DNA from: a virus
Taxonomy: Duplodnaviria; Caudoviricetes
DNA: 64,000 nucleotides
IMG/VR virus record: IMGVR_UViG_3300025867_000005
Direction: 5' to 3' (one strand)
Shown: positions 5,160 to 36,169 of the stretch, piece by piece
Layout of the letters: each line of letters opens with the position of its first letter
Position numbering within the stretch: position 1 is the first letter of the stretch
The notes under the pieces: model-generated
Told to the model about the DNA's origin: nothing
Database searches by the model: none
The model's input: only the letters and a program-made list of their open reading frames with translations
Program-made: the position numbers and the translations under genes

Positions 5160-6383
5160 ATGGGTAAGACTCTCGGAATCAAGATGAGCAAGGCGGAACG
5201 TGAACAGGCTATTTCAAAGTTCATGGTTAAACTTCTAAAGGAAAAGGAAAAGGCGGTTGTCTTTAAGACCCCCCATGAGGTAGTGAAGTCAGACATTACT
5301 GTCAAAGCATTGCTTGACAAGACGGCGACAAGCATGTGCGGACTGCCGGAAATCAATCTGAACCCGATTTTCCAGCGGGGATTCGTTTGGGGTCAGGACA
5401 AAGAAGACGCTTTGTTGAACACGATCCTTGAAGGCGGGCAGATCCCTAGCCTTACATTCGGTAAAGTGCGGGACAAGAACCCCAGCAGTTTTAATCGAAT
5501 CTGTTGTGTCGATGGAGGTAATCGGATTCAGACTCTTTTGCGTTTCATCAATAACAAACGCGCGATTGCCGGTCTGTTCTGTCGAGACGAAGACGACGGA
5601 AGTGTTTCTGTTGATTCTACCAAGACCGTGAATCTGTATATCGGAAAGAAGTTTAAGGATCTTCCCGTTGACGTTCAAAACAAGATTCTGAACTATAAGT
5701 TTTCTTTTATCATTGAAGAGGTTGAGAAGGAAAATGATTTGACCAATATTTTCTTGCGGTTGAATTGCGGCGGTGTGGATATGGATTTCGGGCAGATTCT
5801 TATTGCCAAGTATCGGGAAACGGAATTCGGAAAGGCAATCTTGAATTTTATCGAAACAGAAACAGGGCGTGTTCTTCTTGGTCGCAAACGTGTCGGCAAA
5901 GTCAGCATTCCGAGTCTTTTCCTCCGGTGTTCTGGAATCGTCGCGACGGCAAGTGACTTTATGCGGTTTGTCGGGCGTGGCGGTGCCGATCAGTTTCTTG
6001 GAGAAAGTTCTGCTACTTCTTCTAAGGAAGCCGACAACAGCATGCTTCATTTCAAGAAGGCGGTGGAAGTGTTCAACAAGTATTTCTCAGATTTCGAGTT
6101 TTATCAGCACGTCTTTGAAAAGAATGGCGCTAAGAAACTTGTTACCTGTACTTTCTCAAAACAAGAGAAGGTTAAGACGGCCATTATTTCCGTTCTTTGC
6201 GGAATCGATGATCTTGATTTTGTTATCAAGAATCACATGGCCATCGGAGAAAATCTTGTTCAAAAGCTTCTTCCGTCTACGGTGGCAGATTCAATTCTGT
6301 TGAACCTCCTTACCGTTCAAACGACCATGCGCGGTCGCCGTGAACAGGCAATGATGCAAATCCGTGAATGCTTTGGAATTTAA
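5160..6383 (+). CDS. DUF262 (ParB-like/GmrS-type) domain protein
   Basis: FQRGFVW, VDGGNRIQT, IFLRLN.GG motifs. Confidence 0.8.
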   Translation: MGKTLGIKMSKAEREQAISKFMVKLLKEKEKAVVFKTPHEVVKSDITVKALLDKTATSMCGLPEINLNPIFQRGFVWGQDKEDALLNTILEGGQIPSLTFGKVRDKNPSSFNRICCVDGGNRIQTLLRFINNKRAIAGLFCRDEDDGSVSVDSTKTVNLYIGKKFKDLPVDVQNKILNYKFSFIIEEVEKENDLTNIFLRLNCGGVDMDFGQILIAKYRETEFGKAILNFIETETGRVLLGRKRVGKVSIPSLFLRCSGIVATASDFMRFVGRGGADQFLGESSATSSKEADNSMLHFKKAVEVFNKYFSDFEFYQHVFEKNGAKKLVTCTFSKQEKVKTAIISVLCGIDDLDFVIKNHMAIGENLVQKLLPSTVADSILLNLLTVQTTMRGRREQAMMQIRECFGI

Positions 6384-27604: not shown

Positions 27605-27697
27605 GGAGGGTTGGGGGAATTGGTTGAACCCGGATGTCTCGAAAACATCTGAATCGGCTAACACCCGGTTCTGTCAGTTCGAATCTGACACCCTCTT
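27605..27697 (+). tRNA. tRNA-Ser(CGA), no encoded CCA
   Basis: GATGT-CT-CGA-AA-ACATC; TTCGAAT. Confidence 0.88.
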
Positions 27698-27767
27698 GCT
27701 GGATAAGTTGAAGTACCTTTACGTGGTTTCTGGTATAGGGTCGCTTGCGATTCTCGAAATCTTCAAC
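27698..27767 (+). ncRNA. HDV-like (theta) self-cleaving ribozyme
   Basis: P1 GCTGGA/TCTGGT, P2 GTTGAAG/CTTCAAC, P3 ACC/GGT, L3 TTTACGT, P4 hairpin, J4/2 CGAAAT; G1 directly after tRNA discriminator. Confidence 0.75.
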
Positions 27768-27788
27768 AGTGTTCTTTAAAATTAGAAT

Positions 27789-29344: not shown

Positions 29345-29581
29345 TCTTTCGATGCGAATATCGGACAGACAATTTTGAAAATCTTAAGAAGGTAGATTCA
29401 TGGTTCGACGGAATTGTGAATCCTGACCTAACAGGGATAGATTCTACGTGGTGTATGGTGCACACTGGCCCCCTCAAACGGGCCGGGGGACAACGTTCAA
29501 GTCGTTGACGGAAGAACAAGTTTGTGTCTGCAAAGACGCATAAGTGAAATCCCCTACAACTTTACCCCTGAACAGGGGAAT

Positions 29582-29918: not shown

Positions 29919-29994
29919 GGGGCTGTCGTCTAAGAGGAAGGACATAGGGCTGAAAATCCTACGGTGATGGTTTCGAGTACCTCTGGCCCCACCA
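29919..29994 (+). tRNA. tRNA-Phe(GAA)
   Basis: cloverleaf, CCA. Confidence 0.88.
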
Positions 29995-30092
29995 ATTTAA
30001 AGCTGAATAGCAACGTATCCAAGCCGTTGTGCCCGTCCCTTCTTTTGGAAGGTAATGATATGCGGTTGAAATCCGAAGCTTGGCCGATTTAC

Positions 30093-30212
30093 GGGGATGT
30101 GGCGCAATGGCAAACACGGGTTGTATCCTAACAGCTTAGGTCGTGCGGAACAGCCTGTTGTCTAAATCCAAATTACGACAACTTGTATGTTCGAATCCTG
30201 CCTTCCCCATCA
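30093..30212 (+). ncRNA. tRNA-like RNA with extra arms
   Basis: acceptor GGGGATG/CTTCCCC, D-loop-like TGGCAA, TTCGAAT; two extra helices. Confidence 0.5.
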
Positions 30213-30219
30213 TTTTTTA

Positions 30220-30383
30220 CGGGACGAAGTAAAACGGAAAGGTCTCGGATCAATTGATCCCGAACACATGTCAGACTGGTAAGCGCAACCGAATTGACTT
30301 CGGGTTTATTTTCCGATAAAAGACTATAACACCAAGGAATGGTGCCTTGGAAATATTTGGTTCGACTCCAAAAGTCCCGACCA
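30220..30383 (+). ncRNA. tRNA-like RNA with giant D-domain (type A)
   Basis: CGGGAC/GTCCCG-A-CCA, T arm TTTGG-TTCGACT-CCAAA, ~100-nt D insertion. Confidence 0.65.
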
Positions 30384-31398: not shown

Positions 31399-31472
31399 GG
31401 GGATGTATCTCAATTGGACAGAGTGTGTGGCTTCTAACCACAAGGTTGCGGGTTCGACTCCCGCTTTCCCCA
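31399..31472 (+). tRNA. tRNA-Arg(TCT), no encoded CCA
   Basis: TGTGG-CT-TCT-AA-CCACA. Confidence 0.9.
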
Positions 31473-31473
31473 C

Positions 31474-31543
31474 GGGTGATAAGTTGAAGTACCTTTACGT
31501 GGTTTCACCTATAGAGTCACTTGCGATTCTCGAAATCTTCAAC
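31474..31543 (+). ncRNA. HDV-like (theta) self-cleaving ribozyme
   Basis: P1 GGGTGA/TCACCT (covaries with copy at 27698), identical P2/P3/L3/J4-2. Confidence 0.8.
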
Positions 31544-32190
31544 AAAATGATATCTTGGATAATTTTTAAGAATTTCATAGCTTTCCCTTCTTTAAAGTGT
31601 TGGAAAGTTGAAACATCAATAATACAAAGTTCTATATTTCGTTCGTGACAAGCTTGGCATTTCCTGTTGTCATTGTTTTGAATTTTGGAAAGCTTATCTT
31701 CACCGTAGATAGGTTCGTAATGAAAGATACCATTTAGTTCGAAAGCAAGTTTCAAAGAAGGAATGTAGATATCTAGTTCTGAATTGATAGCGTCCTTCCT
31801 ATTGAAGTGGAATTCAAGATTTGGGTAAAGGATCGGCAACTTCGTTTCCAACCACCTTTCAAGCTTAGATATTTTTGTTCCTTTTGTTTTATGCATGTTA
31901 TTATAGGTTGCTGAACAAGATTGACTGCAAAAATGGTGTTTGGATTTCTTGATGCGCGAAATTTGTATCTTAAATTTTTTACTACATTGTTCGCAGTTGA
32001 TAAAAATTGGAGGATGAACAGATTGACCGAAACAGATAAGAGAACAATATTCAGAAGTTTCACCTTTTTTTGTATTTTGAATCCTGTGTTTTTCTTTGTA
32101 GAAAGTTTTACCGCAATGTTTACATTGTAACGGTAGTAGTTGACGTGATTTAGCTGCTTGGAATTCTTCTTCGGTAAAAAGTGGTATCAT
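31495..32190 (-). CDS. zinc-finger + Vsr-like homing endonuclease
   Basis: CxxC..FCSxSC repeats; ELDIYIPSLKLAFELNGIFHY. Confidence 0.8.
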   Translation of the reverse strand: MIPLFTEEEFQAAKSRQLLPLQCKHCGKTFYKEKHRIQNTKKGETSEYCSLICFGQSVHPPIFINCEQCSKKFKIQISRIKKSKHHFCSQSCSATYNNMHKTKGTKISKLERWLETKLPILYPNLEFHFNRKDAINSELDIYIPSLKLAFELNGIFHYEPIYGEDKLSKIQNNDNRKCQACHERNIELCIIDVSTFQHFKEGKAMKFLKIIQDIILLKISRIASDSIGETT

Positions 32191-32625: not shown

Positions 32626-32715
32626 GGGGGTTGTTCTTTACGGAGGTCTGTAAAACCTTTGCCGTTATTATGTAAAGCGGTTCGGCAGATAGTTCGACTC
32701 TATCAGCCCCCACCA
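32626..32715 (+). tRNA. tRNA-Tyr(GTA), D-arm-less
   Basis: acceptor, anticodon, long V and T arms, CCA; D arm replaced by 10-nt linker. Confidence 0.75.
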
Positions 32716-33646: not shown

Positions 33647-33736
33647 GAGAGTTTGGGTGAAATGAATTAGCCAACGGTCTGCAAAACCGTAAAACACAGA
33701 AATGTGATGAGGGTTTAAGTCCCTCAACTCTCTCCA
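33647..33736 (+). tRNA. tRNA-Cys(GCA), long variable arm
   Basis: cloverleaf, U73, CCA. Confidence 0.85.
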
Positions 33737-33746
33737 TTTTTTAGAT

Positions 33747-33821
33747 AGGGATATGATGTAACTAGTAGCATGAAAATCTCCAAAATTTTCTGTCCAGACG
33801 CGAATTCTGGTATCCCTGCCA
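33747..33821 (+). tRNA. tRNA-Trp(CCA)
   Basis: AAAAT-CT-CCA-AA-ATTTT; CCA end. Confidence 0.85.
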
Positions 33822-34113
33822 CACAAAGGAAACTACGACGCGCTACAAACTGAAGCCGAGAAGCCTAAGATGCGCTAAGTACGATCAAGGGGTGAGACGA
33901 TTCTTGATTTGCGCAAGAGATAGAAAAGTCAACGTACCCTAGTTTCCCTGATTTACTAAAAAAAGATTAGCGGAAAACTATCAAGAACCACTTGACACAG
34001 AAGCAGAGGTTTGATACAGTGTTTGTGTTTGAGAAATTCTAGGTGCTGTAAGCAAGTCCTTATTAGGACTGTGAAGCCCGAATAGACCTTTGAAAACTGA
34101 ATGTGATTTAAAT

Positions 34114-34193
34114 GGTGGAATGGCCGGAAACTCTTTTTCGGGGCTCCGATTTAATGGGGCTTAATGTTGGGGAAGATCCAATATCCACTACCA
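34114..34193 (+). ncRNA. degenerate CCA-ended tRNA-like RNA
   Basis: GGTGGA/TCCACT-A-CCA with three internal hairpins. Confidence 0.45.
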
Positions 34194-34230
34194 ATTTATG
34201 TCGATTTATGTTAATTTATGTCGATTTATT
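34194..34230 (+). repeat. 10-nt tandem repeat (~3.7 copies)
   Basis: ATTTATGTCG ATTTATGTTA ATTTATGTCG ATTTATT. Confidence 0.8.
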
Positions 34231-34309
34231 GCGGTAGGGATTAAGGTAAGGTTTACCTAATGAGGCTCATAACCTTGTAACCAGAGATCGTTCCTCTGCG
34301 CCGCATCCA
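34230..34309 (+). tRNA. tRNA-Met(CAT)
   Basis: TGAGG-CT-CAT-AA-CCTTG; CCA. Confidence 0.75.
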
Positions 34310-34316
34310 ATTTTAA

Positions 34317-34349
34317 GTTGTGCTATTCGAATAGCACATGAATTGAAAC
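34317..34349 (+). CRISPR. solitary I-C-like repeat unit 3
   Basis: GTTGTGCTATTCGAATAGCACATGAATTGAAAC. Confidence 0.7.
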
Positions 34350-34362
34350 ATCACGGGACAAT

Positions 34363-35366
34363 GGGAATATGGAATAACGGCTAGTTCACCTCACTTAACC
34401 ATTTCAATAGTTAAATATTCTGCCATTTTGTTTGATAATTATAATCCGTGTAGAGGAGACGTATGATACCACTTTACACCGAAGAAGAATTTAACAAGGC
34501 TAAATCAAGAGATTTACTTCCCAACCAATGTAAAAATTGCGGGAAGATTTTCTTTAGAGAAAAACACAATATAATGTTTTACATTAATAATGGAGGTGGA
34601 GATTTTTGTTCAATTTCTTGTTCTTTTAAATTCAATAACCCACTGATTGAAGTTGTTTGTCATACATGTGGAAAATCATTTAAGAAGAAAAAACTTGATG
34701 CAGATAAAGAAGAACGGCATTTTTGTAGTAGAAGTTGTGCTAATAAATATTCTTCAAATATCAATAAAGAACAAAAGACTTTAAACCAAAAGAAATGGGC
34801 AAATTCAGAAGAAGGAAAAAATTTTTTAACTAAAACAAGCAAATTGGCATGTATTAAAAGTATAGAAATTAGAAAACTTAAATGGAAAATGAATAAATGT
34901 CCGGTTTGTGGTAAAGAGTTTAGGGTAATGTTTAAACATAAGAAATACTGTTCGGCAACTTGTTATAATAAAATATCTGGTGGTATAAAAAGGGGGTCTA
35001 GTAGAGGTAAGCATGGTTGGTATAAGGGATACTGGTGTGATTCTTCTTGGGAACTTGCTTGGGTGATTTACAACCTTGATCATGGGATTAAGTTTGAAAG
35101 GAATCATCAAGGTTTTGAATACGAATTTGAAGGAAAGAAACATAAATACTATCCAGATTTCATTTTAGAAGATGGAACTTACGTTGAAATTAAATCTGTT
35201 ATGGATGAAAAGAACAAAGCTAAAATTGCTTCGTTCCCAACTTCAATTAAAGTTTTACAGCATAAAGAGATTAAAATATTCATAGACCATGCGATTAAAA
35301 TCTATGGTAAAAATTTCATCTCATTATATGAGGAAGGTCTGGGTTCGAATCCCGGTATTCTCGCCA
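34363..35366 (+). tRNA. tRNA (probably Asp) split at the anticodon by an endonuclease gene; halves 34363-34395 and 35327-35366
   Basis: GGGAATA/TATTCTC acceptor, CCTCA/TGAGG anticodon stem, G73, CCA. Confidence 0.75.
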
Positions 35367-35380
35367 ACGCCTTGACATAG
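34463..35380 (+). CDS. zinc-finger + TnsA-like PD-(D/E)xK homing endonuclease
   Basis: CxxC..FCS repeats; CDSSWE, YYPDF..YVEIK. Confidence 0.82.
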   Translation: MIPLYTEEEFNKAKSRDLLPNQCKNCGKIFFREKHNIMFYINNGGGDFCSISCSFKFNNPLIEVVCHTCGKSFKKKKLDADKEERHFCSRSCANKYSSNINKEQKTLNQKKWANSEEGKNFLTKTSKLACIKSIEIRKLKWKMNKCPVCGKEFRVMFKHKKYCSATCYNKISGGIKRGSSRGKHGWYKGYWCDSSWELAWVIYNLDHGIKFERNHQGFEYEFEGKKHKYYPDFILEDGTYVEIKSVMDEKNKAKIASFPTSIKVLQHKEIKIFIDHAIKIYGKNFISLYEEGLGSNPGILANALT

Positions 35381-35445
35381 CTTAAGCGTAAAGCCCCGAC
35401 ATTGTAGTCGGGAGATGAAGCCTAACGAACTTCTGACTCGGCCAA
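35369..35445 (+). pseudogene. degenerate tRNA-Thr(TGT)-like
   Basis: TAGCTTAAGCGTAAAGC D arm, CCCGAC/GTCGGG stem with TGT, poor T arm. Confidence 0.4.
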
Positions 35446-35588
35446 TTTGTCCCATGTCCTGAACAAAGGGATAACAGGACTTAATTACGTTTCTGCTGGC
35501 AGAGCCGATAAAGATCCACCCCGGAAGTGCAGAAAGTAAGGGACAAACTTTTTGATATCAGATTCTATTAATGTAACAAGGGTTTTAT

Positions 35589-36077
35589 ATGTCTAGGAAA
35601 AGAACATGGACTGATGAAGATTTTACTAAGGCGGCTTCTGTTTCTACTTCTGTTCGAGATCTTCTAAAAAAGATAGGATTACATCCAACTGGAGCAAACT
35701 ATAAAACGGTTTGGGCAACTGTCAGGCGTTTAGGAATAAATACCAAACATTGGGTCGGGAGTGGCCATCTTAAAGGTAAAACACATAATTGGTCTAAGTG
35801 TCTACCTTTCGAAGAGATTTTGATAAAAGATTCGCATTATAGAGGTAGTACTTCTCGGTTAAAATCTAGACTAATAAAAAACGGAAAGCTTTTAAATAAG
35901 TGTTATGAATGTGGACAAGAACCTTTATGGAAAGGAAAGATTTTAGTTCACGTTCTTGACCATATTAATGGCGACAATACAGATAATAGAATCGAAAACC
36001 TTAGATTGTTGTGTCCGAATTGTAATAGTCAAACAGAAACTTTTGCTGGGAAGAATAGAAAGTTTGTTCATTGTTAA
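35589..36077 (+). CDS. HNH endonuclease
   Basis: CYEC..LDHINGDNTDNRIENLRLLCPNC. Confidence 0.9.
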   Translation: MSRKRTWTDEDFTKAASVSTSVRDLLKKIGLHPTGANYKTVWATVRRLGINTKHWVGSGHLKGKTHNWSKCLPFEEILIKDSHYRGSTSRLKSRLIKNGKLLNKCYECGQEPLWKGKILVHVLDHINGDNTDNRIENLRLLCPNCNSQTETFAGKNRKFVHC

Positions 36078-36079
36078 TA

Positions 36080-36169
36080 CGTGCCGTATCCCAACTGGCT
36101 GGAGGAGCGGGACTCAAAATCCCGTGGACGGAAGTCCCACTGTGGGTTCGAATCCCACCGGCACGACCA
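36080..36169 (+). tRNA. tRNA-Leu(CAA)
   Basis: cloverleaf, CCA. Confidence 0.9.

Follow-up and report, generated by a model that had tools for sequence, protein, structure and literature searches.

We examined a 64,000-nucleotide stretch (hereafter the window) of the virus record IMGVR_UViG_3300025867_000005 (Duplodnaviria; Caudoviricetes), in which the two halves of a tRNA gene lie about 930 nt apart, separated at the anticodon by an endonuclease open reading frame (ORF; whole locus, 34363-35380). This arrangement is likely to have arisen when, at the level of DNA, an intron-less homing-endonuclease gene (HEG) cassette was inserted in the anticodon loop of a tRNA gene of the phage; the tRNA gene would thus have been killed recently. 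The disrupted gene was most probably a tRNA-Asp(GUC) with the loop CUGUCUA. This reading is carried by the anatomy of the locus, the lack of a detectable ribozyme, the genomic contexts of homologous endonuclease genes and the pattern of divergence from a relative, all of which are direct observations. The window corresponds to bases 164667-228666 of a 304-kb virus contig with 41% G+C, from a jumbo phage whose genome was assembled from several anaerobic-digester metagenomes. The identical ORF occurs on 10 near-identical metagenome contigs, and of two 6.9-kb loci, one is identical to the window and the other departs from it at 1 position.

When ARAGORN was run without introns, no tRNA was reported at 34363-35380. 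With introns allowed, it returned one tRNA at 34363-35366, consisting of a 76-nt cloverleaf with a 928-nt insert in the anticodon loop, in agreement with an earlier note, made from the letters alone, which had proposed that the two halves form a complete cloverleaf. The 5′ half (34363-34395, + strand; tRNA positions 1-33), which has its counterpart in a diverged relative designated L020, contains the acceptor strand GGGAATA, the D arm, the anticodon-stem strand CCTCA, C32 and U33. The 3′ half (35327-35366, + strand; positions 37/39 to 76), found by ARAGORN and by the Rfam tRNA model, which aligned well to this half alone (22.9 bits), contains UA, TGAGG, a 5-nt variable loop, the T arm, the acceptor strand TATTCTC, G73 and an encoded CCA. 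Together, the halves form a 7-bp acceptor stem with one G.U pair, a D stem (GAAT/GTTC), an anticodon stem (CCTCA/TGAGG) and a T arm (CTGGG-TTCGAAT-CCCGG). This cloverleaf is obtained only with the 928 nt removed, and position 37 is U rather than a purine in every possible join; U37 A38 does occur in intact tRNAs adjoining homologous HEGs (tRNA-Glu in L003 and tRNA-Asp in L027). Since the same arrangement is present in 10 contigs and in the diverged relative L020, it is not an assembly artefact. The label that ARAGORN gave to the joined molecule, tRNA-Stop(tta), was rejected: the junction is ambiguous, and the TTA comes from a Leu codon of the HEG plus the junction T. Annotators should be warned that intron-aware tRNA finders would report a "suppressor tRNA(UUA)" here, which the evidence does not support.

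The insert encodes a protein of 305 aa (34463-35380, + strand), characterized by Pfam, by PDB profile search, by homologue alignment and by an AlphaFold2 model. As the earlier note had stated, this endonuclease ORF runs through the entire tRNA 3′ half, and it stops 14 nt beyond the CCA. N-terminal zinc ribbons (Pfam zf-FCS) are followed by a C-terminal PD-(D/E)xK domain resembling T7 endonuclease I. The match to Phage_endo_I (PF05367) reached 24.0 bits, below the curated cut-off of 29.1; phmmer against the PDB gave T7 endonuclease I at E=1e-3, and a profile built from 13 homologues gave E=1.8e-5 against the same database. Residues E197, D232, E242 and K244 are invariant across the 13 homologues, and the catalytic residues are intact. 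In the model, the predicted local distance difference test score (pLDDT) exceeds 90 for the nuclease domain and falls under 50 for residues 291-305, a tail that is encoded by read-through into the tRNA 3′ half and is disordered in the model. In L020 this tail has another sequence, length and stop position, and tracks the base pairs of the tRNA, not codons. Foldseek searches with the model gave uniformly weak matches (E >=0.05), nearly all to PD-(D/E)xK nucleases, with Bax1, a Cas4-like protein, I-Bth0305I, TnsA and T7 endonuclease I at the top. The protein had been described as a TnsA-like endonuclease, a description that holds loosely. The fold is PD-(D/E)xK; the TnsA structures 1t0f and 1f1z matched weakly (E 0.1-0.2, TM ~0.15), Pfam gave no TnsA match for the protein, and by sequence the protein is closest to T7 endonuclease I (PDB 1m0d, 2pfj), whose PD...ExK motif aligns at D232, E242 and K244. 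T7 endonuclease I resolves junctions and lacks the zinc ribbons of the protein described here. The family has more than 1000 metagenomic homologues, Lak megaphages among them; a search of the viral contig collection with the protein returned no related loci. Taken as a whole, the insert looks like a free-standing HEG cassette.

A splicing apparatus was sought in several ways. Rfam searches of positions 33700-36100, carried up to E 10, gave no group I, group II or small-ribozyme match, and the RF00028 model, run across the whole genome, matched elsewhere and not at the split-tRNA locus. These searches bear out the claim that the insert has no ribozyme core. Bases 35310-35329 are free of G, the last G being 35308, ~18 nt before any possible 3′ junction, which rules out a group I omega-G. 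Outside the window, a full-length match to the group I intron model, below threshold, was observed at G000:C1:47696-47952 (+), with 25.6 bits and E=2e-5 (one genome). We also built a covariance model from four copies of the theta ribozyme, a hepatitis delta virus-like family that has been described (PMC10879173). It recovered two copies in the window (27696-27772 and 31472-31548) at 98-100 bits, and no others in 27-47 kb. Both lie directly 3′ of tRNA genes, and a further copy is found at L005 6186-6262. On the insert, this model gave nothing on the + strand and at most 12 bits, on the minus strand only.

Signs of protein-based splicing were equally sought. The bulge-helix-bulge that marks archaeal-type tRNA introns did not appear in the minimum-free-energy folds of 12 junction mini-precursors, and EndA (PF01974) had no match in the 304-kb phage genome; a host enzyme could conceivably play this part. 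The phage genome does encode RtcB and three proteins of the PF09414 (Rnl/ligase) family. A sealing enzyme is therefore on hand in the phage, and a cutting mechanism was not found; beyond the presence of these genes, nothing came to light in favour of the earlier suggestion that the halves are rejoined by phage RNA ligases. The RtcB gene lies outside the window at G000:C1:11701-13749 (-), an open frame of 837 aa in which the Pfam match falls into two parts (1-76 and 137-424), and the large insert that divides them is probably an intein.

Outside the ORF, the insert comprises just 67 nt of AT-rich sequence. It begins with a 20-nt filler (34396-34415, + strand), read from the sequence and identical in L020, that contains a small hairpin (TTAAC...GTTAA, which uses T34395) and a TTCAAT motif. 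The filler is followed by a remnant of a tRNA 3′ end, TATTCT-GCCA (34416-34425, + strand); save for one deletion, it is the same as the final 11 nt of the split tRNA (TATTCTCGCCA). Shuffling of 34396-34462 produced a match within 1 edit in 6 of 20000 cases (p ~3e-4), and there are just 2 such sites in the 64-kb window. In L004, the HEG is preceded by a tRNA-Glu, onto whose terminal GCCA the remnant aligns; in L020 the remnant is of the window type, although L020's own tRNA 3′ end is TATCCCCGCCA. The remaining part (34426-34462, + strand) is an upstream spacer of the HEG, with a Shine-Dalgarno-like AGAGGAGA and homology to the tRNA-to-HEG spacers of L003 and L004.

At the right junction (35324-35332, + strand), the Leu-Tyr-Glu codons of the HEG, TTA TAT GAG, overlap tRNA positions 37-42, and the Tyr-Glu codons provide a microhomology, TATGAG(G), to these tRNA positions. 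The C-terminal sequence ...YGKxFIxLYE is common to the 13 homologues, which end 0-5 residues later, some with a further zinc ribbon. In L027, the HEG ends in TTA TAT GAA TAA, and the tRNA-Asp upstream of it has the loop and stem CTGTCTA TGATG. Because the LYE codons of the window gene run into the tRNA 3′ half, that half has replaced the HEG's own end and its stop codon. Of the two alternatives put forward in the earlier note, a knockout by insertion at the TATGA microhomology of the YE codons is the one favoured by the homologue C-termini, the remnant and L027.

To place the insertion in context, we compared nine loci carrying seven different HEG homologues, the window itself excluded. In all nine, the HEG either follows a tRNA gene at a distance of no more than ~80 nt or shares sequence with one, as an insert or by overlap; where it follows an intact tRNA, the gap is 40-80 nt. 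It follows tRNA-Glu(UUC) in L003 and L004 and tRNA-Ile in L006, stands beside tRNA-Asp(GUC) in L024 and L025, and lies between two tRNA-Asp(GUC) genes in the near-identical pair L027/L028; Asp(GUC) neighbours are found at three HEG homologues, that is, at four loci of which two are near-identical. In L020, which derives from the same metagenome-assembled genome as L004, the HEG is inside the same split tRNA with identical junctions. The syntenic site is polymorphic for the HEG, which is present in L020 and absent from five relatives (L005, L008, L009, L011 and L012), where the tRNA and the HEG are both missing between conserved flanks. U37 A38 was observed in tRNAs directly 5′ of HEGs in L003 (1432-1505, Glu UUC, loop CTTTCTA) and in L027 (1348-1421, Asp GUC, loop CTGTCTA), and other Asp tRNAs near HEG homologues have A37 or G37; the U37 A38 tRNAs could be alleles resistant to the endonuclease or to an anticodon nuclease. 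An intact allele, which the earlier note had proposed to look for in relatives, was not recovered by any of six pattern scans of viral and genome contig collections, whose patterns stood for the two halves, for the anticodon arm expected of an intact allele and for the Asp sequence exactly as predicted; a scan with a T-arm/acceptor pattern recovered only the split allele of L020.

The window and L020 differ very unevenly along the locus. Within the cassette, 12 of 931 positions differ (1.3%), whereas in the tRNA halves 7 of 73 do (9.6%), and the upstream flanks are ~50% different and, further out, unrelated. The cassette is thus younger than the halves, and the contrast of 1.3% with ~10% agrees with the earlier view of the event as recent. 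Three of the L020 substitutions fall in the 5′ half, all compatible with pairing, and four in the 3′ half. Five stem changes preserve pairing without exception (A4-U69->G4-C69, G2.U71->G2-C71, U50.G64->C50-G64 and A11-U24->G11.U24), and the first of these is a compensatory change that spans the 930-nt gap; by a rough estimate, five such changes would have a chance of a few percent under neutral decay. Next to the junctions, 17 nt and 8 nt are identical between the two. As far as such a comparison of sequences allows, the cassette most likely moved between lineages by homing with short co-conversion tracts, and the pattern suggests recent homing into already diverged alleles. The stem changes are most plausibly differences that intact alleles had acquired before they were invaded, and they fit a pseudogene only if they predate homing.

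The identity of the disrupted tRNA had been given as probable Asp. This assignment remains favoured but unproven, the anticodon having been lost: we put Asp at somewhat better than even, Glu well behind it and any other identity lower still. Asp is indicated by G73 and G10 in the split tRNA, and by the tRNA-Asp(GUC) genes that adjoin HEG homologues. No other tRNA-Asp was detected in the 304-kb genome; the claim that Asp alone is without an intact tRNA did not hold, as Trp is likewise undetected in the genome. An intact tRNA-Asp(GTC) lies at the equivalent site in L010, 37 nt upstream of a conserved element (described below). In addition, the anticodon arm of the L027 tRNA-Asp, CATCA-CTGTCTA-TGATG, is one compensated base pair away from CCTCA-CT...TA-TGAGG and has U37 A38 alike; its loop, CTGTCTA, is the one that had been predicted for an intact Asp allele. 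The case for Glu draws on the two closest free-standing HEG homologues (L003 and L004), which adjoin tRNA-Glu(UUC), on a similar D arm, on the L003 loop CTTTCTA and on the T kept at position 34 of the 5′ junction. In global alignment of the joined halves to the tRNAs of the window and of related loci, the L003 tRNA-Glu(UUC) ranked first, weakly. When each half was compared by BLAST with annotated phage genomes, the matches were generic T-arm ones (mostly tRNA-Arg), apart from one chance non-tRNA match.

Together, these observations appear to suggest the following course of events, in which the site of the break, the route of repair and the loss of tRNA function are what we infer. The HEG would initially have lain ~35 nt downstream of the tRNA, as it does in relatives. 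A double-strand break in the anticodon region may then have been mended by illegitimate repair, in which the left junction would have retained a scrap of the tRNA 3′ end and the right junction would have formed at the microhomology TATGAG, with loss of the anticodon and of the HEG stop codon. The presumed outcome is a disrupted tRNA gene that would be immune to the nuclease, and an intact nuclease with a 15-residue unstructured tail. Later, the HEG-bearing allele would have homed into a diverged allele in a second phage lineage. Several points weigh against this scheme. The left junction, with its filler and remnant, lacks a detailed explanation and may have taken more than one rearrangement to form. 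Since no intact allele came to light, we infer the pre-insertion state and the anticodon. The paired stem changes could reflect selection on the joined structure after the split, and the phage could in principle ligate the halves, having RtcB and three proteins of the Rnl/ligase family.

The last two of these points are those on which a functional split tRNA would draw, in which an unknown protein or RNA nuclease cuts at both junctions and an RtcB or Rnl-type ligase joins the halves into an Asp or a UUA/UAA-reading tRNA. The main point in its favour is that both lineages keep every pair between the halves, with a compensatory change over the gap; the RtcB ORF with its intein-like insert and the three PF09414 genes would supply the ligase, and the array has many other unusual RNA-processing features, theta ribozymes among them. 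We nonetheless regard this as very unlikely: neither a ribozyme nor a bulge-helix-bulge motif nor EndA was found, every joined loop has U37, the 3′ boundary falls within codons that are conserved for reasons of the protein, the duplicated 3′-end remnant indicates rearrangement of DNA, and the halves are far older than the cassette, which makes it simplest to date the covariation before the insertion. A more specific version, to which we give slightly less credence, would have the insert excised by an unrecognised nuclease (possibly the encoded PD-(D/E)xK protein or a host anticodon nuclease) and the halves sealed by phage RtcB. If true, this would amount to protein-only, ribozyme-free tRNA splicing in a bacteriophage, through which a HEG colonises an anticodon loop free of cost.

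Two further explanations leave the tRNA unjoined or invoke an intron. The halves might have been co-opted as signals for the processing or stability of the HEG mRNA, the acceptor/T-arm minihelix that their long-range pairing would rebuild being cut by RNase P and 3′ enzymes so that the HEG message is freed from a polycistronic tRNA transcript. The ORF is bracketed exactly by the halves, its stop codon lies 12-14 nt past the CCA, so that a cut at the CCA would remove it, and tRNA-linked processing elements occur elsewhere in the array. The origin of the locus alone accounts for the arrangement, however, and in relatives HEGs of this family are expressed with no brackets of the kind. We rate this the strongest of the rivals, though still improbable. 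Least likely of all is a self-splicing intron, degenerate or novel, whose core would overlap the ORF and escape detection by Rfam. In its favour, bacterial tRNA group I introns classically insert in the anticodon loop, and the intron of Synechocystis tRNA-fMet is known to carry a homing endonuclease of the PD-(D/E)xK type (as cited in PMC3984707). Against this stand the lack of RF00028 signal up to E 10, the lack of G at the 3′ end, the homology of the 67 AT-rich nt outside the ORF to ordinary HEG upstream spacers, and the free-standing state of the HEG family everywhere else.

Every tRNA gene found in the 304-kb genome falls within the window, at 27.5-46.3 kb. ARAGORN missed a tRNA-Phe at 29919-29994 (found with Rfam) and a tRNA-Tyr at ~32626-32715; its call of a tRNA-Leu(caa) at 29442-29517 is without Rfam support, and its "tRNA-Arg(cct) with a 194-nt intron" at 30092-30383 was rejected, being a merger of pieces of two separate tRNA-like genes. 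One tRNA-like gene, which ARAGORN forced into this Arg(cct) call, at 30093-30210 in the window and 1319-1425 in L005, has an acceptor stem and a T arm, and in it a covarying stem (GTCGT/ACGAC versus GCATC/GATGC) closes a 22-30-nt loop with a conserved CTGTTRTCTRAATCCAAAT. Between 27789 and 36331, long variable arms were observed in Lys(UUU), two Asn(GUU), Glu(UUC), Cys(GCA) and Pro(UGG), and short ones in Leu(AAG) and Leu(CAG). Just 5′ of the split tRNA is an odd 70-nt tRNA-Met(CAU)-like gene (window ~34237-34310; L020, reverse complement, 1148-1217), which ARAGORN called in L020 and not in the window. A hairpin followed by ATGAATTGAAA(C) is repeated between tRNA genes (window 34317-34349; L005 ~5775-5805 and ~5995-6025); one copy lies 13 nt 5′ of the split tRNA in the window, which is not so in L020.

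Downstream of the split tRNA lies a conserved structured element of ~70 nt (35376-35445, + strand) with two covarying hairpins and an invariant 3′ segment, for which Rfam gave no match. Its loops, ATTGTA, are invariant, as is the 3′ segment GAGATGAAGCCTAACGAACTTCTGA..GGCCA, and compensatory changes occur at 4 of 13 predicted pairs. The element is present in L003 (2602-2670), L005 (5894-5965), L010 (reverse complement, 1444-1515) and L020 (reverse complement, 2537-2610), and also in L008, L009, L011 and L012. It is outside the cassette and serves as a marker of the syntenic site. A long-range helix between its 3′ end and sequence 5′ of the tRNA looked possible in L010 and was dropped, its position not being conserved. 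Further downstream, an HNH endonuclease gene (PF13392, phrog_10822; 35589-36077) stops 2 nt short of tRNA-Leu(CAA). The entire segment from 35558 to 36070 is missing from L020 and from L005-type relatives, and the HNH gene is therefore a second, independent mobile endonuclease insertion.

Free-standing HEGs have been described in other phage tRNA clusters, including T4 SegB, which recognises a T-psi-C motif (PMC2330249), and the F-Tfl HNH enzymes of T5 (Akulenko et al. 2004, as cited in PMC10644984). The locus described here resembles these systems in that a nuclease gene lies among phage tRNA genes and is present or absent between related phages, probably recognises tRNA-gene sequence, and would spread by gene conversion with its flanks. 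It differs from SegB, an intergenic gene for a GIY-YIG enzyme, in encoding zinc ribbons and an endonuclease-I-like PD-(D/E)xK domain, and from both SegB and F-Tfl in that the HEG is inside a tRNA gene and destroys it. The fold of I-Ssp6803I is reportedly also of the PD-(D/E)xK type. I-Ssp6803I is a homing endonuclease of the group I intron in Synechocystis tRNA-fMet (Bonocora & Shub 2001, as cited in PMC3984707). In both cases a gene of the PD-(D/E)xK superfamily sits in a tRNA anticodon loop, with the anticodon arm as its likely target, but the Synechocystis intron is self-splicing and leaves the tRNA functional, whereas no ribozyme was found here. PDB searches detected no sequence similarity between our protein and I-Ssp6803I. 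Another parallel is mobE, which is said to split nrdA in phage Aeh1. Genes in pieces through HEG insertion have been reviewed more generally (PMC2988022). As with mobE and nrdA, an intron-less HEG lies within a gene and the flanking pieces are intact; unlike protein fragments, which can reassemble non-covalently, a tRNA split at its anticodon needs religation to decode.

The general view is that HEGs persist inside a gene only where an intron or intein keeps them out of its product. The locus described here is the bare alternative, an intron-less HEG in the anticodon loop, at the same site that is used by pairs of group I intron and endonuclease. What is distinctive is the combination of the anticodon-loop location with the lack of an intron, the host gene being sacrificed and the allele having nonetheless spread. 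It offers a natural snapshot of such elements invading a dispensable target, with apparent spread between two phage lineages, and it draws attention to a large, uncharacterised endonuclease family that tracks tRNA-Asp and tRNA-Glu genes in the tRNA arrays of huge phages.

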